Virus record (IMG/VR): IMGVR_UViG_3300014867_000001
Location: 1 to 51,047 of that record
Length of the DNA stretch: 51,047 nt
Source of the DNA: a virus
Taxonomy: Duplodnaviria; Caudoviricetes
Direction: 5' to 3' (one strand)
The notes beneath the pieces are model-generated. The model was not told the DNA's origin, ran no database searches, and saw only the letters and a list, made by a program, of their open reading frames with translations. Position 1 is the stretch's first letter. Each line of letters opens with the position of its first letter. Positions 8,395 to 48,066 of the stretch are shown here, in pieces. Made by a program: the position numbers and the translations under genes.

Positions 8395-8413
8395 GCCGTA
8401 GGAGTTGCATACA

Positions 8414-9100: not shown

Positions 9101-9252
9101 TGGCCCGTCCGACACCGAAATCAGGAATGAAAGTTACTTTTTCTGTCAGCATCAGCCTTGAGGAGGCTATTGCTTTGAAGGCTTTGGCTGACAAAAAGGA
9201 AACGTCGCCTCAGGAAATTGTTCGAGACCTCATTTCGAAGGCTACAAAGTGA
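9100..9252 (+). CDS. Ribbon-helix-helix (CopG/Arc-like) protein, 50 aa
   Basis: Hand translation ...KVTFSVSISLEEAIALKALADKKETSPQEIVRDLISK; beta-alpha-alpha pattern; overlaps the queC stop. Confidence 0.6.
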   Translation: MARPTPKSGMKVTFSVSISLEEAIALKALADKKETSPQEIVRDLISKATK

Positions 9253-10073
9253 TCTTCATCACCCACGTGGAATTCCTCCAGCTGGAAGACCACGTCTCCA
9301 CGCGTTCGCTTTGGAGTCCCGGCTCTCATCCCGGGACTTGGGTGCAATCCAAACGTATCGCTGACGGAGACTTTCCTCACTTCTTCCTCGCTACGGAACG
9401 CAAATCCGAAGACGTGTTCGAAGTCGCTGGAATGGGCATCGGCGAGACCTGGAGCGATGACGAAATCAAACGGCACCTCATCGACATCCTCCGTTCAGGC
9501 ACCGACTATGGCACACGTATCAACATCGAACGCTACCTCGAGAAACTCGGCGTCGTTGGATTCCGAGGTCATGCAGGCAATCTCCTTCGAGTTGTATATG
9601 GCGAGGTTGAGGTACCGGCTCTCCCGGAAGCGATCGACAGAACGTTCTTCTTCGCGGATCAACCCGGATGGATGCAACTCAAATGGCGCGGCGGAGAAAC
9701 CATCCAAGTAATCGTTTCCGTCTACGACTTCGAACACGACGGATATCTCATCGGAACCGGTAACATCCGGGGCTGCTACGGAGCTGACGCAGTTGTCCGC
9801 AATCACTCCCTTCCCGGCTCACCAATTGACTATCCCTACGGCTTCTTTCCAGACAGGAGAAAACGTGACGCATCAGTTCGTTCAACAGACATGGGAACAA
9901 GTCCTGGAGGAGGCAACTCGGCTCTCCCTAGCGTGGGTGGGGGAGATAGTCCTCAACCAGTCACGAATCCAGGTCTACCGGAATTGCCCACGGAAGTTCT
10001 ACTGGAAGTTCGTGGAGAACCTGGAGCCGGAGAGGATCGCGTTGAACCTGGAAGTGGGATCCGGAACGCATGA
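9249..10073 (+). CDS. Hypothetical protein (C-terminus overlaps the nuclease gene)
   Basis: GTGA overlap start; last ~70 codons overlap the next gene out of frame. Confidence 0.6.
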   Translation: MIFITHVEFLQLEDHVSTRSLWSPGSHPGTWVQSKRIADGDFPHFFLATERKSEDVFEVAGMGIGETWSDDEIKRHLIDILRSGTDYGTRINIERYLEKLGVVGFRGHAGNLLRVVYGEVEVPALPEAIDRTFFFADQPGWMQLKWRGGETIQVIVSVYDFEHDGYLIGTGNIRGCYGADAVVRNHSLPGSPIDYPYGFFPDRRKRDASVRSTDMGTSPGGGNSALPSVGGGDSPQPVTNPGLPELPTEVLLEVRGEPGAGEDRVEPGSGIRNA

Positions 10074-10839: not shown

Positions 10840-11048
10840 TGAAGAACCTAGTTTGTGAAGGCGGGTGTAACAACGGCCTAGTCGAGTTATTCGACGAGCA
10901 CGTTCACTCCGTCAAAGGAGATCGGACAGCCATCGACCCGTCTTGGTTGGATCGGGCACGTCGATTCGTTCACACCCTACATACGTGGGTCTCCGTGAAC
11001 AGGTGGCGTTGTACTGCTTGCGGAACCGTACGGAAGTTCAACGACTAA
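10836..11048 (+). CDS. Small zinc-ribbon protein
   Basis: CEGGC...H...CTAC. Confidence 0.55.
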   Translation: MMKNLVCEGGCNNGLVELFDEHVHSVKGDRTAIDPSWLDRARRFVHTLHTWVSVNRWRCTACGTVRKFND

Positions 11049-11560
11049 TGGACGGCTCCACAATCATCACGCCCCTCTACGGCCATCTTCTCGTCTCAAG
11101 GGATCCGGATATTGGCACCATCCCGCTTGCCGAGAACAAGTTCGCTCCGGACAAGAAGTTCATCATCATGCCGGATGTCGAGAAGAAACGCACTCAGAGT
11201 GGCGTCGTCCACGCACACAACATGACCGGGGATTGGGAAGCCGACGAGGGAGATATCGGCGGGTGCCGCATTCTCTGGTCCAAATACGCAGAACGTGAGT
11301 TCACCATCAACAACCACACGTTCTGCATCGTCGATGAGCGAGATGTCCTCGCCATTTTCACAGGAGCGAAAGTCATGGAGAAGTCCGAATTCCTCGAGAA
11401 GGTCAACGAATTCCTCAACGAGATTCCCGGTGACGAGCTGACCGCCGAGAACCTCACGCAGATCCAGGACCAGGTCGAGGCGCTCGCCGAGACCGAGCAG
11501 GGCGTCGAGGACGGTGAGGAAGACGGCGACGAGCCGGCCGCGGAAGAGAAGAGCGAGTAG
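11048..11560 (+). CDS. groES: GroES/Cpn10-like co-chaperonin with acidic C-terminal extension
   Basis: ITPLYGHLLV, IIMPD..K....GVV.A, ILWSKYA..E, IVDERDVLAIF match the Cpn10 pattern. Confidence 0.75.
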   Translation: MDGSTIITPLYGHLLVSRDPDIGTIPLAENKFAPDKKFIIMPDVEKKRTQSGVVHAHNMTGDWEADEGDIGGCRILWSKYAEREFTINNHTFCIVDERDVLAIFTGAKVMEKSEFLEKVNEFLNEIPGDELTAENLTQIQDQVEALAETEQGVEDGEEDGDEPAAEEKSE

Positions 11561-13614: not shown

Positions 13615-13799
13615 AATACGAGCTTGCGGTTGAAGCGGGTGGAGAACGTTTCACCCTAACGCTTCAGACGAGGGATCTCGAAGCACACTCGAAGTTGCAG
13701 ACGGAAACGGAAGCAGTGGAGATGATCATGAAGGATGCTCAGTTCAACCTGATCACCCTGCTCTCCTCCATTCATTCCAACAAGGAGGCTGGAGCATGA
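13611..13799 (+). CDS. Hypothetical protein
   Basis: Coupled overlaps. Confidence 0.55.
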   Translation: MKYELAVEAGGERFTLTLQTRDLEAHSKLQTETEAVEMIMKDAQFNLITLLSSIHSNKEAGA

Positions 13800-14236
13800 T
13801 TGTTACTCGCTCGATCGAGTTCCCGATGGGGCACCGGCTCCAAGCACACGGAGGCCTCTGTCGGTACGTGCATGGCCATAACTACAAAGTCGCCGTTACC
13901 ATCGAAGCGGAGCGGCTTGACGTCCAAGGCATGGTCATCGACTTCTCCGATTTGAAGGTGGAGATGGATGCCTTGTTCAAGAAGTATGATCATGCCCTCA
14001 TTCTTCAAGAGTTCGATCCGCTCTACTCCTTTGCGAGGAACAGTCTCGAATCGAACGCCTTCGGGCTTGGACGGATCATTCCGATGACTGCACCTCCGAC
14101 CGCAGAGAATCTTGCTCGTCTTTGGTTCCAGCAGCTTGACACGATGATCGGAGACGCAGCAAGGGGCGTTTTCGTCAAGAGCGTTACCGTTCACGAATCC
14201 GCTAACACGTCCGCGACGTATTGGTTGGAGCGTTAA
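13796..14236 (+). CDS. queD: 6-carboxy-5,6,7,8-tetrahydropterin synthase
   Basis: GHRL....C..VHGHNY, GMVIDF..LK, DHA, PTAENLA, terminal E. Confidence 0.95.
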   Translation: MIVTRSIEFPMGHRLQAHGGLCRYVHGHNYKVAVTIEAERLDVQGMVIDFSDLKVEMDALFKKYDHALILQEFDPLYSFARNSLESNAFGLGRIIPMTAPPTAENLARLWFQQLDTMIGDAARGVFVKSVTVHESANTSATYWLER

Positions 14237-14895
14237 TGCAACCCTCCTTCCAAGTCGCTGAACGCTTCATCTCCGAACAAGGTGAAGGCATCTACACTGG
14301 CACGCTGATGGGATTCATCCGCTTCACTGGATGCTCGGTCAGCAAGAAAGTCTGCCACCACTGCGATACCGACTTCGACCATATGGATCCGTGGAAGGGT
14401 GGCGGTCCGCTGCGACAGAGCGACCTCATCGAGTGGGCTGTCAAAGCTGATCTCCGCCACATCGCACTTACCGGCGGAGAGCCTTTCGACCAGCCTAACC
14501 TCCAAGAACTTGTCGAAGGTTTCACAACGGCAGACGGGATGGGTCCGTTCCAAGTCCACATCGAAACCTCCGGCACGATCAAGCTCCCTGACTGGGCTTC
14601 CGCCGACAACGTTTGGGTCACCATGTCCCCGAAACCCGGTTGGCTTCGTGAGAACATCACTCCTACAAAAGAGATCAAAGTCATCGTAGGCGGACTCGGC
14701 AATGGTCCGGGCTGGCCAACAATCGACGATGCCCTCTTCTTCGCGAACGAATGCGGTAAGCCGACGTTCCTCCAGCCGAGGAATAAGAAGTTCGACGTCG
14801 ACTACGAGAATCTCCGGATCGTTCAGGACCTCATTCGGCAGCATCCTGAACTCCGGCTGTCAATCCAACTCCACAAAATCCTCAAGGTGCGCTGA
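14236..14895 (+). CDS. queE: 7-carboxy-7-deazaguanine synthase (radical SAM)
   Basis: SEQGEG..TG..FIRFTGC...C..CDT, TGGEP, IETSGT, SPK, LQP, LSIQLHK. Confidence 0.95.
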   Translation: MQPSFQVAERFISEQGEGIYTGTLMGFIRFTGCSVSKKVCHHCDTDFDHMDPWKGGGPLRQSDLIEWAVKADLRHIALTGGEPFDQPNLQELVEGFTTADGMGPFQVHIETSGTIKLPDWASADNVWVTMSPKPGWLRENITPTKEIKVIVGGLGNGPGWPTIDDALFFANECGKPTFLQPRNKKFDVDYENLRIVQDLIRQHPELRLSIQLHKILKVR

Positions 14896-15005: not shown

Positions 15006-15310
15006 AAACCAACACCATCCCTTCCGGGCGTGAGCGCCGCACGTTTGAGACCCCGGAAACGCTCAAGGAATGCACCGAGATCACTGCCGAGTACTTCGCC
15101 GGCAAGAGTGCGGACATCCCTCTCTACTACCTCTTCGGCGCGATCCAGTTCCTCGCGGTCACCATCAGCCATCTCCGGGAGGAGATCGATGTCCTCAAGA
15201 AGAACGCGCACGTCCCTGTCGACATCGATGCGACGGTCAACAAACTCATCTACAAGCGCGAAGCCGAGCTCGCGAAGCAGAAAGCCGCGCCCGTTGCCCC
15301 GACGACGTAA
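15002..15310 (+). CDS. Hypothetical protein
   Basis: GTGA overlap; codon use like its neighbours. Confidence 0.65.
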   Translation: MKTNTIPSGRERRTFETPETLKECTEITAEYFAGKSADIPLYYLFGAIQFLAVTISHLREEIDVLKKNAHVPVDIDATVNKLIYKREAELAKQKAAPVAPTT

Positions 15311-15860
15311 GTCTTCCCGCTTCAACACACCCCAAATGGAGCAGGGCATTTCCCTGCTCCTGAAGGGACTAGGTATCGATGCCGCTTCCGAAAACTACCG
15401 TGAAACACCTGCGCGGGTCACGAGGTTATTCCAGGAATTACTCTCCCCCAAGCAGTCCAACTGGAAGTCGTTTTCTTCCAGGTACCGCGGAATGGTTCTT
15501 CTTCGAAACCATGAAGTCTACGGACTCTGTCCTCACCATCTCCAAGTCGTGCGGATGCGTGTTTACATTGGATACATCCCGCAAGACCGTGCAGTGGGAT
15601 TATCTAAACTTGCCCGTGCAGTTGAAGAGCATCTCTCAATGCCGGTCTTGCAGGAAGACCTCACCGATAACGTTGCTAACTCCATCGAAGAACGGCTTAA
15701 ACCTGTGGGTTGTGCCGTCGTCATCGTTGGTAAGCACGGTTGTATGCGACATCGCGGGATCCGATCCAAAGGCGACGTCATCACGTCGTCGCTCAGGGGA
15801 GCGCTCTTCAACGTCCCGGCGGCGCGCGAAGAATTCATGATGATGATAGGGGGATTGTGA
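15294..15860 (+). CDS. folE: GTP cyclohydrolase I
   Basis: ETPARV, LCPHHL, GYIP, GLSKLAR, LQEDLT, HGCM..RG; start is TTG 15294 or ATG 15336. Confidence 0.95.
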   Translation: MPRRRKSSRFNTPQMEQGISLLLKGLGIDAASENYRETPARVTRLFQELLSPKQSNWKSFSSRYRGMVLLRNHEVYGLCPHHLQVVRMRVYIGYIPQDRAVGLSKLARAVEEHLSMPVLQEDLTDNVANSIEERLKPVGCAVVIVGKHGCMRHRGIRSKGDVITSSLRGALFNVPAAREEFMMMIGGL

Positions 15861-16024
15861 TGCCGAAGACTTACATTGGTGACGGCGTCTACTGTGAGGT
15901 GATGAACGGAGAAATCATTCTCACAACGGAAGATGGGGTCCGTAAGACGAATACGATCTTCCTAGAGCCATACATGATCGAATTCATCCTAACCTTCCTT
16001 CGCAATCAAGGCGTGATTAAGTGA
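15860..16024 (+). CDS. Small hypothetical phage protein
   Basis: TYIGDGVY...IILTT...IFLEP; overlaps the folE stop and the pol start. Confidence 0.65.
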   Translation: MPKTYIGDGVYCEVMNGEIILTTEDGVRKTNTIFLEPYMIEFILTFLRNQGVIK

Positions 16025-18435
16025 GCGATGATCCCGCACAGAACGTTCCTCCTCCTGACCCTCCAGCAGAGGATCCGCTCGCAGCTCTCCACGCCGGCAA
16101 GCTCTCCTTCTGCCGTTCCTGTCCCCTCTACGACGCCCCCGGACCCGTCTTCGGCCACGGCCCCGCGCAAACCCGACTTATGGCTGTCGGTGAGGCACCG
16201 GGGGAAGAAGAAGCCCACCTTGGTCGTCCTTTCATCGGTGGAAGTGGCCGCCTTCTTACAGTTCTACTCGCGAAGGCTGGGATTAGTCGTGAGAGCGTAT
16301 ACCTCACGAACGCCGTTAAGTGCCGTCCTCCAGGGAACCGGAAACCCACGGGAGAAGAAATTACCTGCTGTTCGGTTATTCTCGAACAGGAAGTGAAGGA
16401 TGTCGATCCGAACTGCATCGTTGCTCTTGGTGATACTCCTCTCAACGCGCTTACGTATCGGACCGGCATCACGAGGTGGCGGGGAATTCCGATCGCCGGG
16501 ATGGGAGGTAAGAAGGTTATCGGGACCTTTCATCCAGCCTATGTCGCCCGAGCACCTTCGAACTTCGCTTATCCCATTTTTGATCTACAGCGGGCTGATG
16601 GGGAATCCGCGTTTCCCGAATTGCGAAGAGTGGAAACTTCGTATATTAGAGACGGCTCTCTCGAAGACCTCGAAACTGCGCACCAAGTGGCGCTTGATGT
16701 AGGATTCATCGGATACGACATCGAAACTGCGATGACTCTGCACCCCGAAGACGGAGCTCCCATCTGTTGCGGCTTCGGCTCCGTCCCCGGCAAGATCGGG
16801 TGCTACCGCTGGACACCTCACCTCGTCAACAAAATGAAGGAGATTTTCTCCGATGAGAGGATCGAGAAGGTCGGTCAGAACAACGAAGGATTCGATCTTC
16901 CCTATGTTGAATGGCACGGTTGCCATCATAAGGGGAAGGTGGCCGATACGCTGCTCATGTTTCACTTGGTCTCTCCTGACATGCAGAAGGACCTCGAAAC
17001 GATCAACTCCTTCTATTCTGATATTGAACCCTGGAAGCATGAGAAGAAAGGCGACCTCTTCATCTACAACTGCAAGGACGTAGATGCGACGATCCGAGCG
17101 TATATCAACCTGAAGAAGGAGATTGCGTCGATTGGGCTGACAGACTTCTACTACAACCACGTCGCACCTGTCCAGCCTGTCATCCGGAAGATGACTGCGA
17201 GAGGGATGAAGAAGGACGTTGACAAAGCCATTATGTGGTCGTACGTTCTCACCAAGCGTGCGAACGAGTTAGAGAAAGTTCTCCAAGAAGGCATCGGCGA
17301 TATGTCCTTCAACGTGAACTCCGCTCCGCAGTTGAAGACGCTCCTCTACGATACAATGGGGCTCAAGACTCAGTACAAGAAGAACAAGAACGGAGGGTTC
17401 TCTCCTACTACCGACTCCGAGGCCTTAGAGAAGCTCGCTCTCCTCTACCCCAACAACGAAATCTTCAAAATGGTCATGGAGATTCGTGAATGCCGAAAGA
17501 TGGAATCCACCTTCGTCTCCGTTGCGACCGACGAGGCAGGGTTCATTCATCCGAGATTCTCCACTGCGAAGGCCGCGACCGGCCGATTCAACTCCTTCGA
17601 ACCTAACGCGCAGAACATCCCGAAGGAAGTTCGTGAGATCTACATTCCTGACACTCCCGACCACGTTATCTGGTCGTGTGATTGGAGTCAGATCGAAGGC
17701 CGCCTCAAAACCATCCTCTCAGGGGATAAAATCGGACTCGACCTTCTCACCTCGGGTGCTGACATGCATCGAGGCACTGCATCGGAGACTCTCGGGAAGA
17801 GAATCGAAGACATCGACGATACCGAGCGCGATACCGCGAAGTTCATCGTCTACGGCCTTGACTACGGTCGCGGCGTTGCTTCCCTCTACGCGGAGGCACG
17901 TCTCAACCCAATCTACAAGGATTGGTCCGACGCCAAGCTCTACCAATTCTTCGAGATGTTTGTCGGACGCTACTCCAAGAAGTTCGAGACCTACTGGAAA
18001 TGGCGTGAGCGGAACGTTCGCTTCGTTGAGAAGAACGGCTTCTACGCGAACCCGTTCGGACGTCGTCGTTATTGGTTCTCGCGGCAGATCACCGAAGTCT
18101 ACAATATGCCTCAGCAAAGCACCGCTGCGGATATGATGTACGACGTGATCGTAGCGATCGACAACGACCTCCCGGCAGGCAGCACTATTCGCCTTACCGT
18201 CCACGACGAACTTGTTGGCAACACCCCCAAAGACCTCGCGAAGCTCACGAAAGAATGCGTTGAAGACCACATGAACCGTAAGTGGCCGAACATCGTCGAG
18301 GCTTCCGCCAACCCTGATCTCGTACGCCTCTACTACCCGAACGGTTGGCATTGTCCAGCTGACCTCGTCTTCGGGAACAATTGGAAAGAATCCAAGAAGG
18401 GTAACAAAGCCCTCATGAAGGAGCTAGTCGGATGA
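16021..18435 (+). CDS. polA: Family A DNA polymerase with N-terminal family-4 uracil-DNA glycosylase domain and 3'-5' exonuclease
   Basis: UDG: CRSCPL, VGEAPG..E, PFIG.SG, TNAVKCRPPGNR, FHPAY. Exo: YDIET, FDL, YNCKDV. Pol: ATGR, DWSQIE, RDTAKFIVYGLDYG, VHDEL. Confidence 0.95.
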   Translation: MSDDPAQNVPPPDPPAEDPLAALHAGKLSFCRSCPLYDAPGPVFGHGPAQTRLMAVGEAPGEEEAHLGRPFIGGSGRLLTVLLAKAGISRESVYLTNAVKCRPPGNRKPTGEEITCCSVILEQEVKDVDPNCIVALGDTPLNALTYRTGITRWRGIPIAGMGGKKVIGTFHPAYVARAPSNFAYPIFDLQRADGESAFPELRRVETSYIRDGSLEDLETAHQVALDVGFIGYDIETAMTLHPEDGAPICCGFGSVPGKIGCYRWTPHLVNKMKEIFSDERIEKVGQNNEGFDLPYVEWHGCHHKGKVADTLLMFHLVSPDMQKDLETINSFYSDIEPWKHEKKGDLFIYNCKDVDATIRAYINLKKEIASIGLTDFYYNHVAPVQPVIRKMTARGMKKDVDKAIMWSYVLTKRANELEKVLQEGIGDMSFNVNSAPQLKTLLYDTMGLKTQYKKNKNGGFSPTTDSEALEKLALLYPNNEIFKMVMEIRECRKMESTFVSVATDEAGFIHPRFSTAKAATGRFNSFEPNAQNIPKEVREIYIPDTPDHVIWSCDWSQIEGRLKTILSGDKIGLDLLTSGADMHRGTASETLGKRIEDIDDTERDTAKFIVYGLDYGRGVASLYAEARLNPIYKDWSDAKLYQFFEMFVGRYSKKFETYWKWRERNVRFVEKNGFYANPFGRRRYWFSRQITEVYNMPQQSTAADMMYDVIVAIDNDLPAGSTIRLTVHDELVGNTPKDLAKLTKECVEDHMNRKWPNIVEASANPDLVRLYYPNGWHCPADLVFGNNWKESKKGNKALMKELVG

Positions 18436-20976: not shown

Positions 20977-21445
20977 AGTCGATGAAGCCGACTTCAACAA
21001 GGATGGCGGGACAAGAGGTGTGCTTGAGTACGTAAAGCTTGTCGGACTGTCTGACCCCGCGCCAGGGGTAATGGGTGAAAGCTTCGCGGAAACCCTTATG
21101 AATGCACTCCGCGATGGCGATCGACTTTTTGTTCTCTGGAAACACCCAAACTTCCGCGCCGGTAGCCTCGGGCTTCCCTGGCGAATCGTCGTCGGGATCC
21201 GCGTTCAGATGGACGGAAACGAACAGCTCGCTGTCATGAGCCTCCGAGATGCGGACTCGCTCGGGGAGCAACACATCCGTATCGACCTCTCGCGTGAGAG
21301 CGATGTTGAATACGTGGCGAACGTCGGCTTTCATCAGTTCCTGGAGCTTAAGTACGATCGAAAGCGCGATCTCTTTCTCCCGGTAGGACTTATAGACAGC
21401 CCCGGGATCTTTCCCGCCGTGTCCAGCGTCAAGTGTGATGTTCAT
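20876..21445 (-). CDS. N-acetylmuramoyl-L-alanine amidase (Amidase_3), endolysin
   Basis: LDAGHGGKDPGA, EK, FVSVHLNA, PAILVEVGFI. Confidence 0.93.
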   Translation of the reverse strand: MNITLDAGHGGKDPGAVYKSYREKEIALSIVLKLQELMKADVRHVFNIALTREVDTDVLLPERVRISEAHDSELFVSVHLNADPDDDSPGKPEATGAEVWVFPENKKSIAIAECIHKGFREAFTHYPWRGVRQSDKLYVLKHTSCPAILVEVGFIDSTHDSEFLSRPGVQMRIARILHEAVCAFAEAHE

Positions 21446-24400
21446 TAGGGTCTCACATCCGGAAGGCCGAAGAGCATCTTCAGTGATTCACCGTAATCAC
21501 CTTGACCGAATGCTTCGGCAGATTTGAGGGCGTGCGATGATGCAACAGTCGGAAATGGTAAGAACTGCTTCCATGCTGAAGTCCTTAGCCGTGCAGCTTG
21601 AATACGGGATACCGCATCCTCGTCTCCTGATGCTGCGGCCGACAACGCTGAACCGGCTTGCATCCCGACTTGAGCGAGTGGCCCGCCTGTGTAGACAAGA
21701 GGCGCGAAGAAACTCCACCGCCCGAAGTCAACTCCAAACACTTCAGACATCCCGTAGAAGAAAGCCGCGTTCACCCCGGCCCACCTCGCTGCAAACTGGA
21801 CACGAGACTTCGTAGACCCCCGACGAAGCATATGATTACCGAACCATTCCGTATACCAAGCTGGCCAGGTGCCATACTGACCAAACAAGCGGCCAGCCGT
21901 GCTCTGCATGACGTAGGGAACGTTCCCTCGCGAGTACAAAAACTGCGACGCCTTTGCGAAGTCGAGTGCGAGAAGGTGCGACGCAAGCTCATTGTTCCCA
22001 CTACCCAACGCCTGCTTCACCTGGACGATGAGCTCCCCAGCGTCAACGTCTCGGAACTCCGCTTTACTCTCGACAAGATACTCAGCCCACGATATTTTAC
22101 GATCAAGGAACTGCTTACCAGCCCGCTCTGCCGCGTTGAACTGGGAATAATACGCCACGACGCGGTTGAAGTCATCTGCCGACTGGTAGAACTGCACCCC
22201 CTTATTCATGAAGTCTACGACTTTGCCTGCGCCTTCCGCATAGCCTGCAAGGCGGGGGGATTCGAGGAGTGCTTGCTGGATATTGGACAACGGCTCGAGC
22301 ATCGCGTTGGTGTTGACGATGTCGCGCTTCTCCATTGCTGCACGTATGTTGGGATCTTTCCTCCACCGGAGACCCATACGGATTCCGAAAGCAGTATCCG
22401 TCCCACCCATTACGGGAAACACCGTCTGGAGAGTCTGTAGGTAGTTCCTCGCAGTCATCCCCATGTTAAACGCCATGTTCGCGAAGTAATTCGCACCCGT
22501 CAACGTACCAACAACGTCAACAGCCTCATCATGTGCTAACTCCACTCCGAGAACGCGTTTCGTGATATTTCGAATGCCCATTGCCATGCCGTAACCCAGA
22601 CGGTCCTGGGCATGCACAGCCTCCGCACGGTGCCGGTTGAAGAAGTCAATCATCACCTTAACGCCGTGGTCCGACTCTACGCCAGCGAGTTGCGTAAGGC
22701 TCTTATCGATGTCTGTCCATTCCTGTGCGAGGTACTTTTCGTGAGCCAGTGCTCGCCCGTACCTCTTCATAGTTACGGCGAAGTCGTACTCACGTTCATC
22801 GAGCCCGAGGTTCTCCCCGAACGACCGAGATTTCCGGGTTATGGGATTTGGCGGTCGCGTGCTGTCATAGGGACGGAGCTCGACGGAGTCCATGTTCATC
22901 CGCCTGAAGTGCGGGAGTTCCTTCAACTCCTTCTCCGGATCCATGTCAAGGTCTGTAATGAACTTCCGAAGGACAGAGTCAAGCAACCCCTCAGCCTTCT
23001 TCACCGTATCGGGAGCCTGCCCTTGGACTCGCTGATATGCCGCGTTGTCCAAGTATCGAAGCTCGAACAGCTTCCCGACCTGAATGCGTTCATCCCGTGG
23101 CAGGAGGCGCGCCATTGCGTGGACTTGATTAAAGAGCGGATGCGTGGCCCGAATCACTTGCGTCCGTCCGTGGTCGATGGATTGCCACCAACGATAGAAT
23201 GGGATGCCCGTCGCTTGCTGGTACTCCTTGAACAACTCCATCGGGACACGGAAGAAGTCCGTCATACGGAAGGTCCGGGATGAAGAAAGATACTCCTCCT
23301 CTGCCGCGCCTGTCAACTCCACTACTGGAGGACGGAGATCACCTCCACCAGCACCTATCGGAGCTAGCGAGTCGAATGGCGTCCGAGGACCGGACCCTCC
23401 TTCATCTGGCGCTGACGCAAGGACGTCTCGTATCCCTCTTGGGGCTCCAACGGGCCCGCCGATACCTGCTTTGGCGAGACGCTTTTCAAGAGCAGGGTCG
23501 TAGATGGGGTTGGGCGGGTTCTCACTCAACGCCGCAATTATCTCTTTCCGATTGGTCTCGGTATACGTTCGGAATGGACCGTGGGAGTCATACTGGAGAC
23601 TACCACGTCGGAATAACTCGGGTTGATTCCACTGACGTAGCTGCGCATACAGAAGTGCGTCACTGGGGTTACGGTTTCCGAAAAGAAAGTGCAACCCCGT
23701 CCCATGTCCGAACTGATTCAGCTGACTCATCACAGCTTCCTCGCCCTGACTCGGGTCAATCCCCATCTTCCGGAGAGTCTCCTGATGAGCGTTGATCCTC
23801 GCCCGCACCGCCCCTTTCTCGTAAACAACGAACTGCTTGAGGTCATGGGCTTTATCGGAGAAGACCCCATCTATCGGCATCGCGTTAAAGGAACCCCCTA
23901 CGTTTGCCTTCTTCGCGAGCGCCTGGACCGTTCCGTTCAACATCCGACCGTGTTTACTCTGGACAATGGTGGCAGCAGAACCTCCGCCTACTACTTCCGT
24001 AATGGAACTTTCCTGAAGCGACGTCTCTCGGAACCTCACCCCGTCTACCACAGCATCTGTCGAACGTTCAGGACCGTCTACTGCCCATGCCTGCAGGAGC
24101 TTCTTTTCGATGACGGGACCATACTTCTTGCCGCGTGGTACACGGAGGAGGAATTCCAGAGCCTCCTGCCCCGTGGGGAAGCGGTACTGGCCGCCTTGAC
24201 CACCGACGATATAGCCTTCAGCATCCGGGGCAATTCGGAACCCACGCTCCCTAGCTGCTTGCGTTAGGGAGTCATAGCTCGCATCCCCGAACTTCAGCTT
24301 GGAGAGTTCGTCGAGCGTCCATTCGAACGAGCCGTCGACGGCGTCAAATTGCGCGCCGGAGACCGTTATACGAACGGGAGTAGTCGGATCGGCGCCTTGA

Positions 24401-27400
24401 GTAAGAAGTACCTGAGCAGCGCGCCGAGCCGTGACCATCTCGAGACTCTTCTCCGCTCCATCCTTCGTAAGTGCGAACGAAGCTGGTCGAATGCTTTCTT
24501 CTCCGAACTCCGTAGCTCTCTGTTCCAGGACTCGAGGGATGGAGTCTTCACTGTACTCTCCTGCGTGACCAGGCTTGGCAGCCTTGCGGGGAACGTATCC
24601 CGCAGGCATATGCCGTCTGGTAACCGACGTATCAGGCTTCCCAGCGAAGACTTCCCAGAAATCCGCCTCGCTTCTCGGCTTGGTCTTCCACTGTTGACGG
24701 TCCGGATCGAAAAATCGTACAGGCGTAGCCGACTGTCGAATGACGTTTCGCTCTCCCGGATCCGTCGGGTGCTGATTCCCCTTGACTCGAGGTAGGTTAG
24801 GATTGTAGTCACCTCTACCGCGCTGCAACCCTTGAATCGTATCCCGTGGGCCCACATCTTCGACAGCCCCTCCAATCTTCGGATAACGAATTCCCGACCT
24901 CCACTCTCCTGTCATCGAGTCGAAGTTCGCCGTGTTCGGGATGGAGAGCGTGATCCCTTGGCCATGCATGAAGACTCGCGGCATGTGCCCAACGAGATAG
25001 TCTTCTTCGTCAATAGCAGTCGCCTCAGGGCTTCTCCAATACTCCGAAGGGCGGTCAAAGTCTTCGGTGATAACTTTTCTACTCTGCAGATCGACAATGC
25101 CGTGACGCGTTTCGCCATTGGAGTGAGGCCTCAGCCCGAGAGGGCGTGCAACGTAACCTGGAGACTGGATCTCAGCGAGCGGGAAGAGCTTATCAAGCGA
25201 TTGCGTTGAAACAACTCCTCGATCATCGCGGACCTTCACAGTCCACTTATTCGCTTCGAACCCCGGCATTCCTGCAGGGATCGGCAACGCTTCCCTCTCA
25301 CTCACTTGCTTGGCCAGGAGCTGATCCTCTTCAGCCAAGACGTCAGCGGTGGAAGCAATACGAGCGTGATCCTCGTTACGTAGATCGTTCCAAGTGCTAC
25401 GTACTCTTCGAGCCTGATCACGAACGCCTTGCCTTATCTGTCGAGACTTACCTCGACTGGTTTTCACCTGTCGCATAAGGTCGACGAGCTGATTCGAACC
25501 CTCTCTCCTCTGATACCCCGCGACGCCCCAGTCGTTGGTTCGAGCTCCTCTCGCCTGAGCTTCGATCCCTTCCTCGTCGATGCTCTCTATCGGAGGCTGA
25601 ACACCTTTCGGGTCCGGTCGGACGCGCTTCAAATTACGCGTCTCCATCTCGTTCGTTACACGTGCTCGCACTGCCGCGTAGCCGTTGACGGACTTATCCG
25701 CTTCGACGAGCATCTTATCCAACGCTAGGAGACCGCCATCACTCTGTTGCTCGATTTGGTCGAGGTTCTTCTGATAGTGGACAACGCGGCGATTGATCTC
25801 CTTCACTCCGGCAGTCGCGATATCTTCCTCATGCGACGTTCGTGCCAGAGCGACAGCAGAACTGATTTCGTCTCCAGGAGCACTCCGCAGCACCGCTCGA
25901 GCTTCCGGATAGGAGTCGAAATCATCCCAAGGCTGTTCACTTCCCAGGACTTCGACATTCTTCCCCGAGACCGCATCGCGATAACGCTTTCCCGCGACAG
26001 GCCTCTCAGCCCGTGCGGCGAGCGTTCCTTCCGGAGCTGACTTCAGCGGGAGATCTCCATCGGCCCCACGAAAGATGTTATTGAACCTCGTCCAAGCACC
26101 GATCCCACCGACCCGTGCTTCGTCGAGCTTCACCTCGAAACCGCGACGCCTGAACTCAAGAGCAGTGTCCCGGAGTTGCCGAGTCTCCACCGCGAACTTC
26201 GTCTGCGAGACCTGTCCCGGTTGAGCAGGCCGATCTGCAGGATTGGATTTCACATGAAACGGGAGATACTGCGTTTCACCGTTCACCGGATTCTTCAGCT
26301 CGAGACGGCCGTGCACACCGAAGTTCGCATCCTGCGTGAAGAAGAGGGGATCGATCTCGAGCTTCGTTGCGAGCACGTCTGCATACCAGTCACCGGCGGC
26401 CCGGTCAGCGTTCAGCTTGAGGATCGTATTGGCAGCAGTATCGTTCTTCGCAAGCTCCCGACTCAGAGCTTGGGCAATTGCGATATCCGATCCAACATTC
26501 CCCGACCGAAGCCGATCAATATGCGTCGCGACTGTCTCCGCAGAAAACCCGGTCTCCGCAGCAATCTTCCCTACCGCTTCATCCGCGACCTTCTGCCCGA
26601 TCTCCTCCCGCCATGCCTTCCGCATGAGGGGGATGCCGATAATCTCGAACGCGCCACCGATCGCAGCGTCTCTCGCCATCCGAGCGAAGCGAGACTCGCC
26701 GTTATCGAGATGAGCGAACGCAGAGATCGAGGCCGCCGAAGCCCCTGCCGCAACGGTCGAGCGTGCAACCTTTCCCGTCATCGTCGCCGCAGTTGCTACT
26801 CCCGTCGCTCCTCTGAACGCTCCGTAAGTGGCGACATTGATAGGCAGCCCACCAATAAGCTCACCAACGATTTCGGGCGCCAGGACGACCTTATCACGGA
26901 CGTGGCCATCGATACTTCCTCGGGAGTCAAGCTCCTGAAGAAGGTCGCGACGAGCGCGATCTCCTGCTCGTTGCATGAGCTTCCAGTCGTTGGAGAAGAA
27001 GCTCGAGACCGGGTAGAAGAACCCCCGTGAGATCCCGTTCTGCATCGCTGCGACGGAGCTCCTCCAGAGCCTTCCGGTTTCCGGAGTCGTGACCGAAGCC
27101 GATGAAGGAATCTCCTTTGTCTGTTTCGAGTGGCCACCTTTGATCACCTCGGCGTTGAAGATATTCCCATCATCATCGGTTAACGCGGCGAGGTGACGGC
27201 CGTACTTATCCTGTGTATCCCCCGCTTGTAGCGAGACGGTGACGTTCTTCCCGGTTCCCAGCTTCTTCAGGAAGGCTGACGCCTCTGGTCCGCCAGACTG
27301 GACCTTCTTAGTAGGATGAACTGTTTCAGGGGTGTCCAACCCAGCAAGCCTGACTCTTCCGAATCCTTCCAGGTCGAGTGTGTCACCGTCTATGACGTTC

Positions 27401-27558
27401 GTCACCCGGAAGCGCTTCCCAGGTTTGTCGAACTTCTTTTCGAGGGCAGCGTCGATCTCGTCCAGGATCGTAATCGGACGTCCTGCCGGTTGTTGGGACA
27501 GTGGCTTATTCACACCTGACTGTCCCAACGATGCGTTGATATCGTCGAAGATACTCAC
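21445..27558 (-). CDS. Large internal virion/ejection protein with N-terminal thermonuclease (SNase) domain
   Basis: 2037 aa in the P22 gp16-equivalent position; VIDGDT, VRLAGLDTPE, DKYGR at aa ~49-146. Confidence 0.8.
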   Translation of the reverse strand: MSIFDDINASLGQSGVNKPLSQQPAGRPITILDEIDAALEKKFDKPGKRFRVTNVIDGDTLDLEGFGRVRLAGLDTPETVHPTKKVQSGGPEASAFLKKLGTGKNVTVSLQAGDTQDKYGRHLAALTDDDGNIFNAEVIKGGHSKQTKEIPSSASVTTPETGRLWRSSVAAMQNGISRGFFYPVSSFFSNDWKLMQRAGDRARRDLLQELDSRGSIDGHVRDKVVLAPEIVGELIGGLPINVATYGAFRGATGVATAATMTGKVARSTVAAGASAASISAFAHLDNGESRFARMARDAAIGGAFEIIGIPLMRKAWREEIGQKVADEAVGKIAAETGFSAETVATHIDRLRSGNVGSDIAIAQALSRELAKNDTAANTILKLNADRAAGDWYADVLATKLEIDPLFFTQDANFGVHGRLELKNPVNGETQYLPFHVKSNPADRPAQPGQVSQTKFAVETRQLRDTALEFRRRGFEVKLDEARVGGIGAWTRFNNIFRGADGDLPLKSAPEGTLAARAERPVAGKRYRDAVSGKNVEVLGSEQPWDDFDSYPEARAVLRSAPGDEISSAVALARTSHEEDIATAGVKEINRRVVHYQKNLDQIEQQSDGGLLALDKMLVEADKSVNGYAAVRARVTNEMETRNLKRVRPDPKGVQPPIESIDEEGIEAQARGARTNDWGVAGYQRREGSNQLVDLMRQVKTSRGKSRQIRQGVRDQARRVRSTWNDLRNEDHARIASTADVLAEEDQLLAKQVSEREALPIPAGMPGFEANKWTVKVRDDRGVVSTQSLDKLFPLAEIQSPGYVARPLGLRPHSNGETRHGIVDLQSRKVITEDFDRPSEYWRSPEATAIDEEDYLVGHMPRVFMHGQGITLSIPNTANFDSMTGEWRSGIRYPKIGGAVEDVGPRDTIQGLQRGRGDYNPNLPRVKGNQHPTDPGERNVIRQSATPVRFFDPDRQQWKTKPRSEADFWEVFAGKPDTSVTRRHMPAGYVPRKAAKPGHAGEYSEDSIPRVLEQRATEFGEESIRPASFALTKDGAEKSLEMVTARRAAQVLLTQGADPTTPVRITVSGAQFDAVDGSFEWTLDELSKLKFGDASYDSLTQAARERGFRIAPDAEGYIVGGQGGQYRFPTGQEALEFLLRVPRGKKYGPVIEKKLLQAWAVDGPERSTDAVVDGVRFRETSLQESSITEVVGGGSAATIVQSKHGRMLNGTVQALAKKANVGGSFNAMPIDGVFSDKAHDLKQFVVYEKGAVRARINAHQETLRKMGIDPSQGEEAVMSQLNQFGHGTGLHFLFGNRNPSDALLYAQLRQWNQPELFRRGSLQYDSHGPFRTYTETNRKEIIAALSENPPNPIYDPALEKRLAKAGIGGPVGAPRGIRDVLASAPDEGGSGPRTPFDSLAPIGAGGGDLRPPVVELTGAAEEEYLSSSRTFRMTDFFRVPMELFKEYQQATGIPFYRWWQSIDHGRTQVIRATHPLFNQVHAMARLLPRDERIQVGKLFELRYLDNAAYQRVQGQAPDTVKKAEGLLDSVLRKFITDLDMDPEKELKELPHFRRMNMDSVELRPYDSTRPPNPITRKSRSFGENLGLDEREYDFAVTMKRYGRALAHEKYLAQEWTDIDKSLTQLAGVESDHGVKVMIDFFNRHRAEAVHAQDRLGYGMAMGIRNITKRVLGVELAHDEAVDVVGTLTGANYFANMAFNMGMTARNYLQTLQTVFPVMGGTDTAFGIRMGLRWRKDPNIRAAMEKRDIVNTNAMLEPLSNIQQALLESPRLAGYAEGAGKVVDFMNKGVQFYQSADDFNRVVAYYSQFNAAERAGKQFLDRKISWAEYLVESKAEFRDVDAGELIVQVKQALGSGNNELASHLLALDFAKASQFLYSRGNVPYVMQSTAGRLFGQYGTWPAWYTEWFGNHMLRRGSTKSRVQFAARWAGVNAAFFYGMSEVFGVDFGRWSFFAPLVYTGGPLAQVGMQAGSALSAAASGDEDAVSRIQAARLRTSAWKQFLPFPTVASSHALKSAEAFGQGDYGESLKMLFGLPDVRP

Positions 27559-29318
27559 TTGCGAATCCCTTCAAGGATCTTCTTGATTTCGAGGAGCCTC
27601 TCGTCGATGGCCGTGATCACTTCCGGGTTGGTCGCTCTCTCCTTCGTTTGGATAAGCTTCCTCGCCCCGTCCTCGAGGTGACGATGCATGAGGATGCGCA
27701 CGCCGGGGGTGGTCAGCAACTTCTCATTCAACCACTTCCCGATCTGCGTACCATCCCAGTCCTTCTGCATTCCGAGTAACTCCATCGCTTGTTCCTGAGT
27801 GACGTTCCCACCCAGGTTTTGCATAAGCGGACCGGCTGCGTTAACAGGGTTACCTGGCGAAGCCCACACCTCACCGAGGAAACCCATAACGGAGGGACCG
27901 ACGGCATCTGCGAAGACGCGCCCTCCGAGCGAGGTATCGTCGCTGATCTTGTCTCCAACGGCCTGCCCAGCGAGACTACCTGTACCGAACATCGTCTTCA
28001 CCCCGGACATGATCGCGTCTCTCCACACAGGCTGCTTCGCGGCCATAGGGTCGAGGCCCATATCCTTCGCGACGATTTCGACAATCTTATCCGAGAGGAG
28101 TTCGATCTGATTCCCGAGTTGCTTCTTATTCCCGACGCCTGCTTTCCTCTCGTCGAGCAGCGTCTGAATCGTCTCTCGCCATCCCTTAATGCTCTCCCGA
28201 ACGTTCTGACTCCTCTTCATCAAAACATCCGTGAACAAGGCTTCCGCCTCATTCCCCATCTTCGTCTGGGCCATCTCGATGAAGCCCTTGTACTGCGTCT
28301 CAGCACCCTCCGACAACTTCGTGCCGTACATAACGTGCCCGGCAAGCTGTCCCGCGGTGTCCGAGTTCAGCGTATACCCGCTCTGCTGCATGAGCGAGTT
28401 CACAATCTGCATCTTGAAGTGGGCTTCCGACTGAATCCTCCCCTTCACGCCTTCTTGGTAGGTTGCCCAGCCCAGCTGCAGTTGCTGGGCTGCTGTGGTC
28501 TTCATCTTCTGATCCAACCCGTTGAGGAGATCGTACTTCCCCTCATACTGAGCCTGGACAACTGCCGCCGCATACTTCTTCGCAGCGCCGGCATCCCCGA
28601 AGAGCTGCATCCCTTCCTGCGTCGCACGGACCATCGCGGCGTTCCTCGCTTGCGGTCCGATGTCAAACTTCTGCTGCATGACCCTCTCGGTCATGTCAGG
28701 ATACTGCTTGGACAAATCCTCCAGGATAAACTGGTCGACGGGTTTGTCCCAGCCGAGGGAACGTTCAAACGGACTATCCGACTTCCGCAATGCATCCCGA
28801 AGTTCGGTATCCGACTTCCTCGTCTCGAAGTCAAACGCTCCGATCTTCAGGTTCTGTCTCATCGCCTCCAGCTGGACCTTCCCGGTCTCAACAGCCTGGT
28901 CGGCGAGGTCAACGGCCGTAGCGATAGTCGCCTTGTCCCGTTCCTTCTGAGCGAGTTCCTCCGACGTCCATTTGCGGATCGCGTCAGGACGAAGCCGGAA
29001 CTTCGGCTCCTTCTTCCCGCCTCCATCCTGCGGCCGCTCAGCCTGAGGGATTTCCTCCATCAAGCCGAGGTACGTCAATACGTCCGGAGTCTGCGACTTC
29101 GTGAACAACGTCTGCGCGTCAGGCGTGAGCGAGTTATACTTCATCCTCGCATCGAGCTTCGCGTGAACGAGATTAGCGTCGTTCGACTTCTTCTGCTGCG
29201 AGAGCTGCATCCCAGCCTGCAACGTCCCCATGAACGACTGGACGAAGGAGGCGACCTTATCTCCTGCCCCATCTTCGTAATACTGCCGTCCTTGTTTATC
29301 CGTCTTAAGCCTGGGCAT
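27555..29318 (-). CDS. Internal virion/ejection protein
   Basis: Helical, Q/A/K-rich; middle of three ejection-type genes. Confidence 0.65.
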   Translation of the reverse strand: MPRLKTDKQGRQYYEDGAGDKVASFVQSFMGTLQAGMQLSQQKKSNDANLVHAKLDARMKYNSLTPDAQTLFTKSQTPDVLTYLGLMEEIPQAERPQDGGGKKEPKFRLRPDAIRKWTSEELAQKERDKATIATAVDLADQAVETGKVQLEAMRQNLKIGAFDFETRKSDTELRDALRKSDSPFERSLGWDKPVDQFILEDLSKQYPDMTERVMQQKFDIGPQARNAAMVRATQEGMQLFGDAGAAKKYAAAVVQAQYEGKYDLLNGLDQKMKTTAAQQLQLGWATYQEGVKGRIQSEAHFKMQIVNSLMQQSGYTLNSDTAGQLAGHVMYGTKLSEGAETQYKGFIEMAQTKMGNEAEALFTDVLMKRSQNVRESIKGWRETIQTLLDERKAGVGNKKQLGNQIELLSDKIVEIVAKDMGLDPMAAKQPVWRDAIMSGVKTMFGTGSLAGQAVGDKISDDTSLGGRVFADAVGPSVMGFLGEVWASPGNPVNAAGPLMQNLGGNVTQEQAMELLGMQKDWDGTQIGKWLNEKLLTTPGVRILMHRHLEDGARKLIQTKERATNPEVITAIDERLLEIKKILEGIRK

Positions 29319-34372: not shown

Positions 34373-35134
34373 CTACCCCGTGAAGTTCATTTCGACCGCG
34401 CCTGGTCCACCTACGCTTCCTGTCCCACCGTTAGGTCCAGGAGAGTTACTACTCCAACCGCCTCCGCCGCCCCAACCTGCTGCGATGCCAGCACACGAGA
34501 CGCTAGCACCATCACCGCCCTGGTCACCTTGACCGGGAGTCGCTCCGTGGTCAGCGGTGCCGTTAGTCATGCCGCCACCATTACCCCCGCCACCGAGTTC
34601 GATAGAGCCAGCGGCACCGCCTCCGCCACCTCCACCGGTACCTCCGTTTGTAGTACCCGGCTGGCCTCCAGGCGCAATAGATTCTCCTACACCCCCTATA
34701 CCGCCATCTCCGCCAGCCCTGCCCGTACCTGTCCCGACTGCACCACCGGACGAACCAGAAGCGCCGTTCATCTCGATGATTTTTGCGCCTCCTTGAATTC
34801 CGATAAAGGCAGAAAGGGCTGACCCAGGAGCAGGAACGCGTATCTCGTAAGTAACGTTCGGAATGAAGGTATACGAGGCAGTGCCGTCTGCACCACCACC
34901 ACCGCCGACTGCTCCATCAGGAGAAACGAAGTTCACGTGTGACCCGTTTTGACCCTGATATCCTGCACCGACTGCTTCAAGATCAAATGCGCACGTCCGG
35001 TTCACCGTGAACGTATACGTCCCGACCGTCGCGAAAGGCACGTTCGGACTCGACAACAACGCTTGCGAGCCAGACGTCGTACCCGTCCACGTGATAATCG
35101 GAGCAGGCAAGCCTGTAGGTTTCATCCCCAGCAT
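34373..35134 (-). CDS. Glycine-rich tail fibre-associated protein
   Basis: VGAG, GGGGG repeats, terminal GGPGAV. Confidence 0.7.
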   Translation of the reverse strand: MLGMKPTGLPAPIITWTGTTSGSQALLSSPNVPFATVGTYTFTVNRTCAFDLEAVGAGYQGQNGSHVNFVSPDGAVGGGGGADGTASYTFIPNVTYEIRVPAPGSALSAFIGIQGGAKIIEMNGASGSSGGAVGTGTGRAGGDGGIGGVGESIAPGGQPGTTNGGTGGGGGGGAAGSIELGGGGNGGGMTNGTADHGATPGQGDQGGDGASVSCAGIAAGWGGGGGWSSNSPGPNGGTGSVGGPGAVEMNFTG

Positions 35135-36351
35135 TACGGGGTCCAGTTCTGTCCGACAGTCGACCCGAACCAGGTCGTCCCGCCGTTAACCGTGTGGAAG
35201 TAGAAGACGTCCAACCTACCACTTGTCGTCGTACGAGTAGGAGCAGTACCTCCCGCCCACTTCACCGTATTCGCGAACCAGTCCCAAGTCTGCGCTGAAC
35301 CATTCGCCAACACACGAAGCACAAATGACGCGAACTTCCCACTCGCAGGGATGTTCGAAATCGTCATCGTCGTGATAGTATTGTCCAACGTAAACGTGAA
35401 CGACGACCCTAGAGCCATGTTCACGGTAAGCGTCGCACCTGAGATCGAGATGGCAGTGTCTTCTTCGTCGTATCCTACGAAAGACTGAGTCGACGTCCAG
35501 GCGTTCGCAGAACCGAGTAGACCAACCCCCGTAAGACTCACTCCCGAGAGGTTCGCGAAGTACGTCGACGAGATCGCAGTGATCTTTCCGGTAGAATCGA
35601 CGAGACTGACATTCCCCGACCCGATCGTCAACCCGCCTGCAATATCAACAGCACCATTCAACGCGGACGTCCCGGCGACCGTAAGATTCCCGGAGAGCGT
35701 CATATCGGTAGTAGTGATACCACCGGACACCGACGCATTGAACGTAACTGCCCCATTAAACGTCGACGCTCCCGTAACAGTGAACGTTCCACCGACCGCA
35801 ACGTTCCCCGTCGTGGTCATCGTCGCGATTTGGAGATCAACGAAGTACCCTGTTGCCCACCGCGCAGCTCCGCTTCCGAAGTTCCGTGCGTTATCCGTTG
35901 TCGGGACAACATTCCCCGCAAAGGTGGTGGCACCGAACGCACCAGTGACCGCGGTCAGCAGACCTGCCTTGGTCAAGGAACCCTTGGAAGAGGCTCCCAC
36001 CTGGAAGTCGAACAGCTTAGACGTTGCGTCAGACGCGGTGTCCGTGATGTTCACCTTAATTGCGGTCGGTGCTCCCGTCGTATTCCACGTCTGTGCGAGG
36101 TCGAACATATTCGAAGCGTTCGATCCCGTCAGGCTATTCGCCGCGGAGATGGAGATCAGTGATGTGTTATCCGCTGCCCGGAAAGGGAGTGTCATCGGAT
36201 AACCGTCGTACGTCTGATCATCGTTCCACTTGAAGCAGACGGACATCCTCTCGTCGACATCCAGCTTCATCGTTCGCATGTGGTTATCAATCGACGAAGC
36301 GAACTCCGAGCCGAGAGGCGTCGAATTGTTCCAGGCGTTTGTATGCGCCAT
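35134..36351 (-). CDS. Tail fibre/spike protein
   Basis: T/G/S-rich beta repeats; C-terminal VKWAGGTAPT..T..D.F.F..GGTTWFG module. Confidence 0.75.
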   Translation of the reverse strand: MAHTNAWNNSTPLGSEFASSIDNHMRTMKLDVDERMSVCFKWNDDQTYDGYPMTLPFRAADNTSLISISAANSLTGSNASNMFDLAQTWNTTGAPTAIKVNITDTASDATSKLFDFQVGASSKGSLTKAGLLTAVTGAFGATTFAGNVVPTTDNARNFGSGAARWATGYFVDLQIATMTTTGNVAVGGTFTVTGASTFNGAVTFNASVSGGITTTDMTLSGNLTVAGTSALNGAVDIAGGLTIGSGNVSLVDSTGKITAISSTYFANLSGVSLTGVGLLGSANAWTSTQSFVGYDEEDTAISISGATLTVNMALGSSFTFTLDNTITTMTISNIPASGKFASFVLRVLANGSAQTWDWFANTVKWAGGTAPTRTTTSGRLDVFYFHTVNGGTTWFGSTVGQNWTP

Positions 36352-47834: not shown

Positions 47835-48066
47835 GGGAATCTCCCTCTTTCGTTGATGACTGTGAAGAAGCCGTTTCAGCTTCTGTGTACTCTCTCAACC
47901 AACCGTAGATGTATTTCGCTCGTCCTTGCGCACGGAGAAGTTCTTCATACACCGTCTCAGTACGCAGGATTTGGTGACATCGCTCCAGTTCCTCCTGGAG
48001 GACCTTGCGGAGCTCCGATCGGGCCTGGGACGGGTGGAGCCTGTTCAGTCGCTGGCTGTCCGCCAT
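47806..48066 (-). CDS. Small post-portal protein (Bbp19-like position)
   Basis: Helical with RAQG motif; overlaps the portal 3' end. Confidence 0.55.
   Translation of the reverse strand: MADSQRLNRLHPSQARSELRKVLQEELERCHQILRTETVYEELLRAQGRAKYIYGWLREYTEAETASSQSSTKEGDSHGRSNTTGY

Follow-up and report, generated by a model that had tools for sequence, protein, structure and literature searches.

A predicted nuclease head on a giant, putatively ejected protein of an uncultured podovirus-like phage

The complete virus record IMGVR_UViG_3300014867_000001 (51,047 bp, direct terminal repeats, 55.7% G+C), which is the window analysed here, encodes on its minus strand a giant protein of 2037 amino acids (aa), referred to below as P0001. 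The gene starts with GTG, is the last gene of the structural operon and is translationally coupled to both of its neighbours: its GTG overlaps the TGA stop of an upstream gene for a 587-aa protein, and its own stop overlaps the ATG of an endolysin gene (Table 1). Near the N-terminus, P0001 carries a staphylococcal nuclease (SNase, or thermonuclease) domain. On balance we take the phage to be an uncultured, podovirus-like one and P0001 to be its large internal-virion (ejection) protein, with a swappable N-terminal head that is, in this case, a nuclease.

By sequence comparison, the SNase domain is real and far beyond chance. The Pfam model PF00565 scores 43.6 bits against a gathering cut-off of 21 (E 4.4e-11; aa 68-148), the PHROG endonuclease family phrog_452 matches the giant protein at E 1.7e-14, and phmmer against the PDB returns 283 SNase sequences, of which the top one is 4qf4_A (E 8.6e-14; aa 52-145 on chain positions 14-110). 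The three motifs from which an earlier note on this DNA had recognised the domain are borne out by these matches and lie where they were expected, namely DGDT at aa 57-60 (nt 27379-27390), RLAGLDTPE at aa 70-78 (nt 27325-27351) and DKYGR at aa 117-121 (nt 27196-27210). In the alignment with 4qf4_A, residues D59, R70, D75, T76, E78, K118, Y119 and R121 fall on SNase residues D21, R35, D40, T41, E43, K84, Y85 and R87. Of these, D21, D40 and T41 are presumably the Ca2+ ligands, and R35, E43 (the general base) and R87 presumably the catalytic residues.

Conservation follows the same residues. Equivalents of the Ca2+ ligands, the catalytic residues, K84 and Y85 are invariant across P0001 and three relatives that also pass the PF00565 threshold (P0002, P0004 and P0005). 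When all 11 SNase heads are compared, the equivalents of D19, D21, R35, E43 and R87 are invariant in every one, in carriers that are only ~30% identical; the D40 equivalent is D in six heads, N in four and H in one. The head shares with PF00565 proteins the OB-fold core, the Ca-site acids, both arginines, the general base and the K-Y-G-R motif, and differs from canonical SNase in being fused to a 1900-aa body instead of being secreted free. It is apparently a catalytically competent, sugar-non-specific nuclease of the SNase type, and probably Ca2+-dependent.

The description of the domain as intact stands for the arginines, the general base and the Ca-site acids, and does not stand for its whole length. 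PF00565 is aligned over profile positions 1-78 of 107 only; the last third (positions 79-107), that is, the Y113/Y115 nucleotide-binding region and the final helix, is unmatched, and the AF2 model of aa 1-240, built from a four-row alignment, is poor, with a predicted local distance difference test score (pLDDT) of 47.9. The best Foldseek matches of this poor model are SNase structures (E 4e-3, 41% identity over 93 columns).

The nuclease occupies a slot in which other heads are found. The common body of the protein opens with a junction motif, G-L-x-x-P-V-S-x-F, which is found at aa 165-189 where the database protein bears an SNase and at aa 66-96 where it does not; the nuclease is therefore a ~100-aa insert between a short leader and the common body. 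(In open reading frames (ORFs) read from related loci the motif lies somewhat further in, because those ORFs run from stop to stop.) A hidden Markov model (HMM) built from four SNase heads was run over 159 family proteins and the related loci. It detects an N-terminal SNase in nine of the 159 (P0001, P0002, P0004, P0005, P0029, P0035, P0090, P0120 and P0156), at a constant position of ~aa 43-175, and also in loci L002 and L017 and, more weakly, L018, in whose head Pfam reports no SNase at E 0.01. A Pfam scan of the N-termini of nine other giant ORFs left eight without a match and found Phage_lysozyme (PF00959) in one. This is the syntenic 2511-aa orthologue from L011 (identical to L012 and L013), with the lysozyme at aa 44-162 (E 1.2e-17). 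The distant member P0013 (1655 aa) has a different, conserved-looking N-terminal head, with an 'NNPLNIK'-type motif that Pfam does not recognise, and this may be a further head type in the same slot.

To follow the inheritance of the head, a FastTree phylogeny of the C-terminal module was drawn from 54 rows, 28 of them fragments with undetermined head state; rows in which the HMM covered fewer than 560 positions (39 of 93) were left out together with identical duplicates, and L011, L012 and L013 were represented by L010. Six of the seven SNase-labelled rows fall in one 10-row clade (six SNase-bearing rows and four fragments; local support 95), which holds no SNase-less full-length protein, while L018 branches elsewhere; the known head states require a minimum of two changes. 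The invariant residues and the single clade therefore indicate that the nuclease head is old, vertically inherited and kept under selection, and not a recent accident. Fusion of SNase to a giant protein is at the same time unusual for phage. IMG/VR holds at least 540 SNase-like stretches; of the best 80 of these, 79 are stand-alone ORFs 132-430 aa long (76 measure 132-177 aa), and the lone giant carrier shares its contig with L002. Stand-alone SNase genes, mostly compact, are very common in IMG/VR phages (at least 540 stretches).

The body of P0001 belongs to a very large family. A word-indexed search found 13 homologues at 27-45% identity, and an exhaustive search with aa 838-2037 as the query brought up 813 clusters (defined at 50% identity) at E <= 0.001, 326 of them at <= 1e-10 and 45 at <= 1e-30. 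The family was found in uncultured sequences only. The most widely common part is the last 300-450 aa, and closer relatives share aa 1040-2037. With an 11-row alignment as the query, 21 loci in IMG/VR were found to encode relatives; P0001 as a single-protein query retrieved none, so the alignment was needed. In L014, L015 and L018 the gene is split and the helical module is a separate ORF of ~740-820 aa, which recalls the case of F116 and H66 as it is described in part of Hardies et al. (PMC4819975). Many database proteins of 680-800 aa consist of the helical module alone. The split-gene loci lie at 6323-13115 in L014/L015 and at 1529-9879 in L018, and the proteins P0021-P0053 measure ~680-800 aa.

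The AF2 model of aa 1040-2037, built from an 88-row alignment, is confident (pLDDT 84.5, predicted template modelling score 0.72), and its last ~620 aa are all helical. The statement that the remaining ~1900 aa hold no recognisable domain is correct as far as Pfam is concerned, in which only SNase is significant in P0001 at E <= 0.1 and no LPD, MPTase, ART or methylase domain reaches significance, but it misses this large conserved family module. No polymerase family matches anywhere in P0001 in the general Pfam and PHROG scans, and an N4-like virion RNA polymerase reading was taken no further. For aa 190-1040 (24441-26989), the Atlas gave polymorphic-toxin clusters with the REase fold (MafB, Tox-REase-3/5/7) at scores of 0.76-0.80, which is chance level, and these were not used.

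A relationship between this module and known ejection proteins is suggested by three kinds of comparison. Firstly, the model of aa 1040-2037 has 58 matches in BFVD at E <= 0.001, whose annotations include 'Large polyvalent protein associated domain', the 'putative internal virion protein' of LKA1, the 'internal (core) protein' of Ab05, the 'structural protein' of KPP25 and the 'internal virion protein C' of an Aeromonas phage, together with giant proteins labelled ART, methylase, LT_GEWL and Matrixin; the internal virion proteins match at E 8.5e-5 to 6e-4. Among the Atlas neighbours, LPD39 occurs in 28% and LPD38 in 63% of members. Secondly, the top hit of VIA-align over 48,161 PDB chains is 8vb2_A, from the PhiM1 pre-infection ejectosome (199 residues, root-mean-square deviation 4.4 A, 14% identity, model residues 394-616), at Z 5.9, although this Z lies in the range where VIA-align itself warns of a generic helical arrangement. 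Thirdly, hhalign of the family profile against nine gp16-type proteins gives a probability of 34.6% (E 4e-4) over model region 492-572, which falls within the stretch matched by VIA-align, and with trimmed helical modules the alignment is collinear over 510 columns (probability 47%, score 45.3). The 11 controls score lower, the reversed template at 24.2 and ten block shuffles at 21.6-28.8. Distant homology between the C-terminal module and the C-terminal part of gp16-type IVP-D (internal virion protein D) is thus probable, if unproven. The gp16-type traits seen are that the gene is a structural-operon gene for a large, mostly helical protein, and that L011, L012 and L013 bear a muralytic head.

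Beyond the unmatched third of the SNase profile and the caution that attaches to the VIA-align score, a number of observations weigh against an ejection protein of this type. The homology to gp16 is weak, the best profile-profile probability being the 47% just given; against T7 gp16 alone, hhalign finds no similarity (probability 0.14%), and against LKA1 gp48 alone it reaches 7.2%, with GRLFGQYGTWP aligned to "GQILGQFRS". The BFVD template modelling scores (TM-scores) are low (0.13-0.39), and Foldseek of aa 1040-2037 against the PDB gives nothing at E <= 0.001, its top rows being unrelated helical membrane proteins at TM <0.1. No PHROG or Pfam internal-virion family matches the giant protein. 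When P0001, its C-terminal part, P0013 and P0054 were run by tblastn against 50,697 phage records, only the SNase region was matched, bar one hit at E 0.05; by this search no cultured phage carries the module, and the phage has no known cultured relative. Finally, a non-specific nuclease stored beside a packaged genome would need a silencing mechanism. Only one INPHARED record, BK063670.1 (Caudoviricetes sp. vir526; host label Methanomicrobiales), matches both the portal (E 3e-10 at 89% coverage) and the C-terminal module, the latter weakly (E 0.05).

The setting of the gene is summarized in Table 1. The genes from terminase to endolysin are all on the minus strand, and the order of terminase, portal, capsid, fibres, 587-aa gene, giant gene and endolysin is kept in related loci. 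Because the terminase gene crosses the record ends, the start of the record is an assembly cut and not a physical genome end.

Table 1. Position, strand and description of the genes and protein features discussed in the text
Feature	Position	Strand	Remarks
Large terminase	2-865 and 50086-51045	-	T7-type by NCBIfam, below cut-off; spans record ends
Portal	47957-49852	-	Nearest cultured matches are N4 gp59-like portals, ~23% identity
Major head protein	45169-46071	-	
Tail fibre	35134-36351	-	
Virion structural protein, 535 aa	32038-33645	-	phrog_3287
Acetyltransferase-like gene, 195 aa	31149..31736	-	Clade-conserved
Tail fibre or spike, 627 aa	29305..31188	-	C-terminal Peptidase_S74 intramolecular-chaperone domain, E 1.3e-11
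587-aa gene	27555..29318	-	No family match
Giant gene, 2037 aa (P0001)	21445..27558	-	GTG start
N-terminal leader, aa 1-48	27415..27558	-	Conserved 'R-P-x-T-x-L-D-E' acidic helix
SNase (thermonuclease) core, aa 49-146	27121..27414	-	Pfam, PHROG and PDB matches
Junction motif GFFYPVSSFFSN, aa 179-190	26989..27024	-	Opens common body
Gly/Ala-rich hydrophobic stretch, aa 224-312	26623..26889	-	Holds every Kyte-Doolittle peak in the protein (up to 1.51 over 19 aa)
Small alpha/beta domains, aa 1040-1350	23509..24441	-	Confidently modelled; no named fold
Gly/Pro-rich linker, aa 1365-1417	23308..23466	-	Low confidence; model residues 326-378, pLDDT <50
All-helical C-terminal module, aa 1418-2037	21448..23307	-	Family signature, includes GRLFGQYGTWP
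Endolysin, Amidase_3, 189 aa	20876..21445	-	Directly downstream of giant gene
QueC	8405-9100	+	preQ0 synthesis set
QueD	13796-14236		preQ0 synthesis set
QueE	14221-14895		preQ0 synthesis set
FolE	15030-15860		preQ0 synthesis set

The earlier note read the giant gene as the last member of a P22-like ejection trio, and this reading finds no support. The first member, the 627-aa protein, is judged by its Peptidase_S74 domain to be a fibre or spike and not an ejection protein, and none of the three has a PHROG or Pfam ejection-protein match. No family, profile or fold result tied the 627-aa, 587-aa or giant protein to P22 gp7, gp20 or gp16, and the sole likeness to these is that several large genes follow one another late in the structural operon. 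The 587-aa protein diverges fast, with 27-29% identity where the giant protein shows 45%, and is possibly a second ejection protein. As for the acetyltransferase-like gene further upstream, T7 internal virion protein A is assigned to an acetyltransferase family in a passage of Hardies et al. (PMC4819975).

Closer parallels are found among gp16-type proteins. The T7 gp16/IVP-D proteins, tetrameric ejection proteins of Autographiviridae (for example LKA1 gp48 and the PhiM1 protein of 8VB2), share with P0001 the position as largest gene of the internal-protein block, an N-terminal enzymatic head and a long helical body; to these can be added the clade member with lysozyme in the head slot, the collinear though weak C-terminal alignment, and the PhiM1 chain as best PDB match. 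According to a passage of the PhiM1 paper, the lytic transglycosylase (LTase) domain of T7 gp16 degrades peptidoglycan at entry (PMC11440229). The giant protein differs in being ~700-1000 aa longer, in bearing a nuclease head instead of a muralytic one, in its extra alpha/beta domains and ~700-aa variable middle, and in lacking a sequence-level match; its gene also follows the tail fibre, whereas that of gp16 precedes it.

Two further groups deserve comparison. Phage polyvalent proteins are predicted, in part of Iyer et al. 2017 (PMC5512222), to be packaged and injected. Like them, the giant protein stands among late/virion genes, has predicted enzymatic cargo and draws BFVD matches labelled LPD or polyvalent; unlike them (at least two effector/LPD domains), it has only SNase, and the LPD labels are found only on structural and Atlas neighbours. 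The main text of that paper contains none of the terms 'SNase', 'staphylococcal nuclease', 'thermonuclease' and 'micrococcal', and the DNases discussed there for polyvalent proteins are ParB-like (PMC5512222). Cytoplasm-destined cargo on IVP-D homologues is described, in the sections concerned, for N4 gp50 (virion RNA polymerase) and H66 gp60 (methylase) (Hardies et al. 2016, PMC4819975). By description these resemble P0001 in combining an IVP-D-type scaffold with an enzyme unrelated to wall digestion, and the portal of the phage is weakly N4 gp59-like (~23% identity); P0001, in contrast, has no polymerase or methylase domain, and its cargo is N-terminal and small. Taken together, the nuclease head of P0001 is real and conserved, and the protein that bears it is probably an ejection protein of the gp16 or polyvalent type.

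For this protein we infer packaging, ejection, catalytic activity, site of action and substrate, and the course of events might be as follows. The capsid core would take up a few copies via the C-terminal module, whose conserved helices would build and anchor the ejection complex. At infection the protein would be expelled through the tail; the Gly/Ala-rich stretch may then insert into a membrane, after which the N-terminal head would be exposed and would cleave nucleic acid at the cell envelope or immediately within it. Canonical SNase requires millimolar Ca2+, which speaks against a cytoplasmic site. Action in the envelope, the periplasm or the channel mouth is favoured over the deep cytoplasm because of this Ca2+ need and because the same slot holds a lysozyme in one relative and an LTase in T7 gp16. 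Candidate substrates could be competitor or incoming DNA, host DNA or RNA, and defence nucleic acids. The leader, in which R27, T30 and D33 are invariant in four sequences, is possibly a packaging signal or an inhibitory segment. As regards the suggestion in the earlier note that a nuclease is packaged and injected with the genome, the operon position, the lysozyme-headed orthologue and the likeness of the C-terminal module all point that way, and the case is one of context and remote homology.

Ejected virion proteins are, to our knowledge, the only phage weapons active before transcription starts, and the kinds of ejected cargo known to date comprise cell-wall hydrolases, an RNA polymerase, ADP-ribosyltransferases and methylases. 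We found no paper on an SNase domain in a phage ejection or internal virion protein. A conserved nuclease in the ejected position raises the questions of how it would be stored safely beside the genome and what it would target in the first seconds of infection. In addition, a very large family found only in uncultured sequences (the 813 clusters) gains a probable role and a confident model of its signature module.

Several more specific or competing explanations have to be considered. In a bolder form of the ejection-protein reading, which we hold to be rather doubtful, a deep, uncultured phage lineage has exchanged the wall-cutting head of its gp16-type protein for a Ca2+-gated, non-specific nuclease that is silent when packaged, is passed on vertically with an intact catalytic site and delivers a first strike before phage gene expression. 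Its release into the envelope or periplasm would open the infection, and its targets there would be the DNA of competing phages, foreign DNA on its way in or nucleic acids of the host.

It is unlikely that the head has the phage genome itself as its substrate, where it would grip or process the leading end within the capsid or channel, or that it is an OB-fold nucleic-acid binder with little catalytic function. The unmatched C-terminal third of the SNase profile, with its Y113/Y115 region, and the N or H at the D40 equivalent in five of the 11 heads would fit such a role, as would the coils of genomic DNA held in grooves of the PhiM1 ejectosome, as described in part of PMC11440229. However, all 11 deeply diverged heads keep both arginines, the general base and D21 without variation, as selection for catalysis, and not for binding, predicts, and a short SNase core is the normal format of phage nucleases, given the 79 stand-alone ORFs among the best 80 IMG/VR loci.

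Quite unlikely, too, is a place outside the capsid, with the giant protein either a part of the tail tip that clears extracellular DNA or a non-virion protein, made late, that breaks down host DNA ahead of lysis. Its gene is near the tail-fibre genes and directly upstream of the endolysin gene, and SNases are typically extracellular. On the other side, the helical module resembles internal virion and ejectosome proteins and not fibres, the lysozyme-headed orthologue mirrors the architecture of T7 gp16, and the Gly-rich hydrophobic segment that follows the head is suited to entering a membrane.

The earlier note paired the injected nuclease with a deazaguanine-modified genome as a possible modify-self, cut-non-self system. 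In such a model dPreQ0-type bases would shield the phage genome, while unmodified DNA of the host or of competitors would be cut. A preQ0 synthesis set of FolE, QueD, QueE and QueC is indeed encoded (Table 1), a packaged non-specific nuclease needs some self-protection, and in L018 an SNase-like head occurs together with QueC. The relevant part of PMC10516641 names DpdA as the signature of deazaguanine modification of DNA. Neither TGT/DpdA (PF01702) nor DUF6610 (DpdA4-like, PF20314) has a match in the window at E <= 1, although divergent DpdA subfamilies could escape these models; DpdA3 and DpdA4 were, by the account in that part of the source, first found only through HHpred (PMC10516641). 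PF01702 is likewise found in none of the 21 related records, while the control genomes all score. A 274-aa ORF beside queC (9249-10073) has no match in PHROGs, NCBIfam, the TGT models or PDB phmmer. Either a divergent DNA transglycosylase is hidden among unassigned ORFs, for example this one, or the preQ0 pathway serves a purpose other than modification; DNA modification in this phage is plausible.

The distribution of QueC speaks against a link with the nuclease. QueC occurs in 12 of the 21 related records and in six of the seven that are at least 90% complete. In five of the six near-complete QueC-positive records the giant protein could be assessed, and an SNase head is absent from all five; in all, six distinct QueC-positive lineages are SNase-less, namely L005, L008, L009, L013 (lysozyme), L014 and L019. 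L002 and L017, the closest SNase-bearing contigs, end before the queC region and were left unscored for co-occurrence. The preQ0 genes are therefore a clade trait independent of the nuclease, present regardless of the SNase head; a permissive role is neither proved nor excluded by this distribution. With DpdA, TGT and DUF6610 not found as above, QueC clade-wide also in lineages without the nuclease, and SNase contacting mainly the backbone and preferring A/T-rich or single-stranded sites, so that guanine position 7 offers no obvious shield, the modify-self, cut-non-self pairing is highly improbable.

Some observations on the wider clade and the replication module may be added. Where contigs reach, the clade order is structural protein, acetyltransferase-like gene, fibre, a variable gene of ~580 aa, giant gene and, in some loci, endolysin; beyond the endolysin position, clade loci show a convergent primase-helicase and then a fusion of uracil-DNA glycosylase and PolA. 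In the window this fusion lies at 16021-18435 on the plus strand and encodes 804 aa, with a uracil-DNA-glycosylase-superfamily domain at aa 44-182 and a family A DNA polymerase at aa 409-754; the fusion ORF is found clade-wide, at ~800-890 aa. The replication module also contains, at 10943-11560 on the plus strand, a 205-aa ORF with a Cpn10 (GroES-like co-chaperonin) domain (E 7.4e-6).

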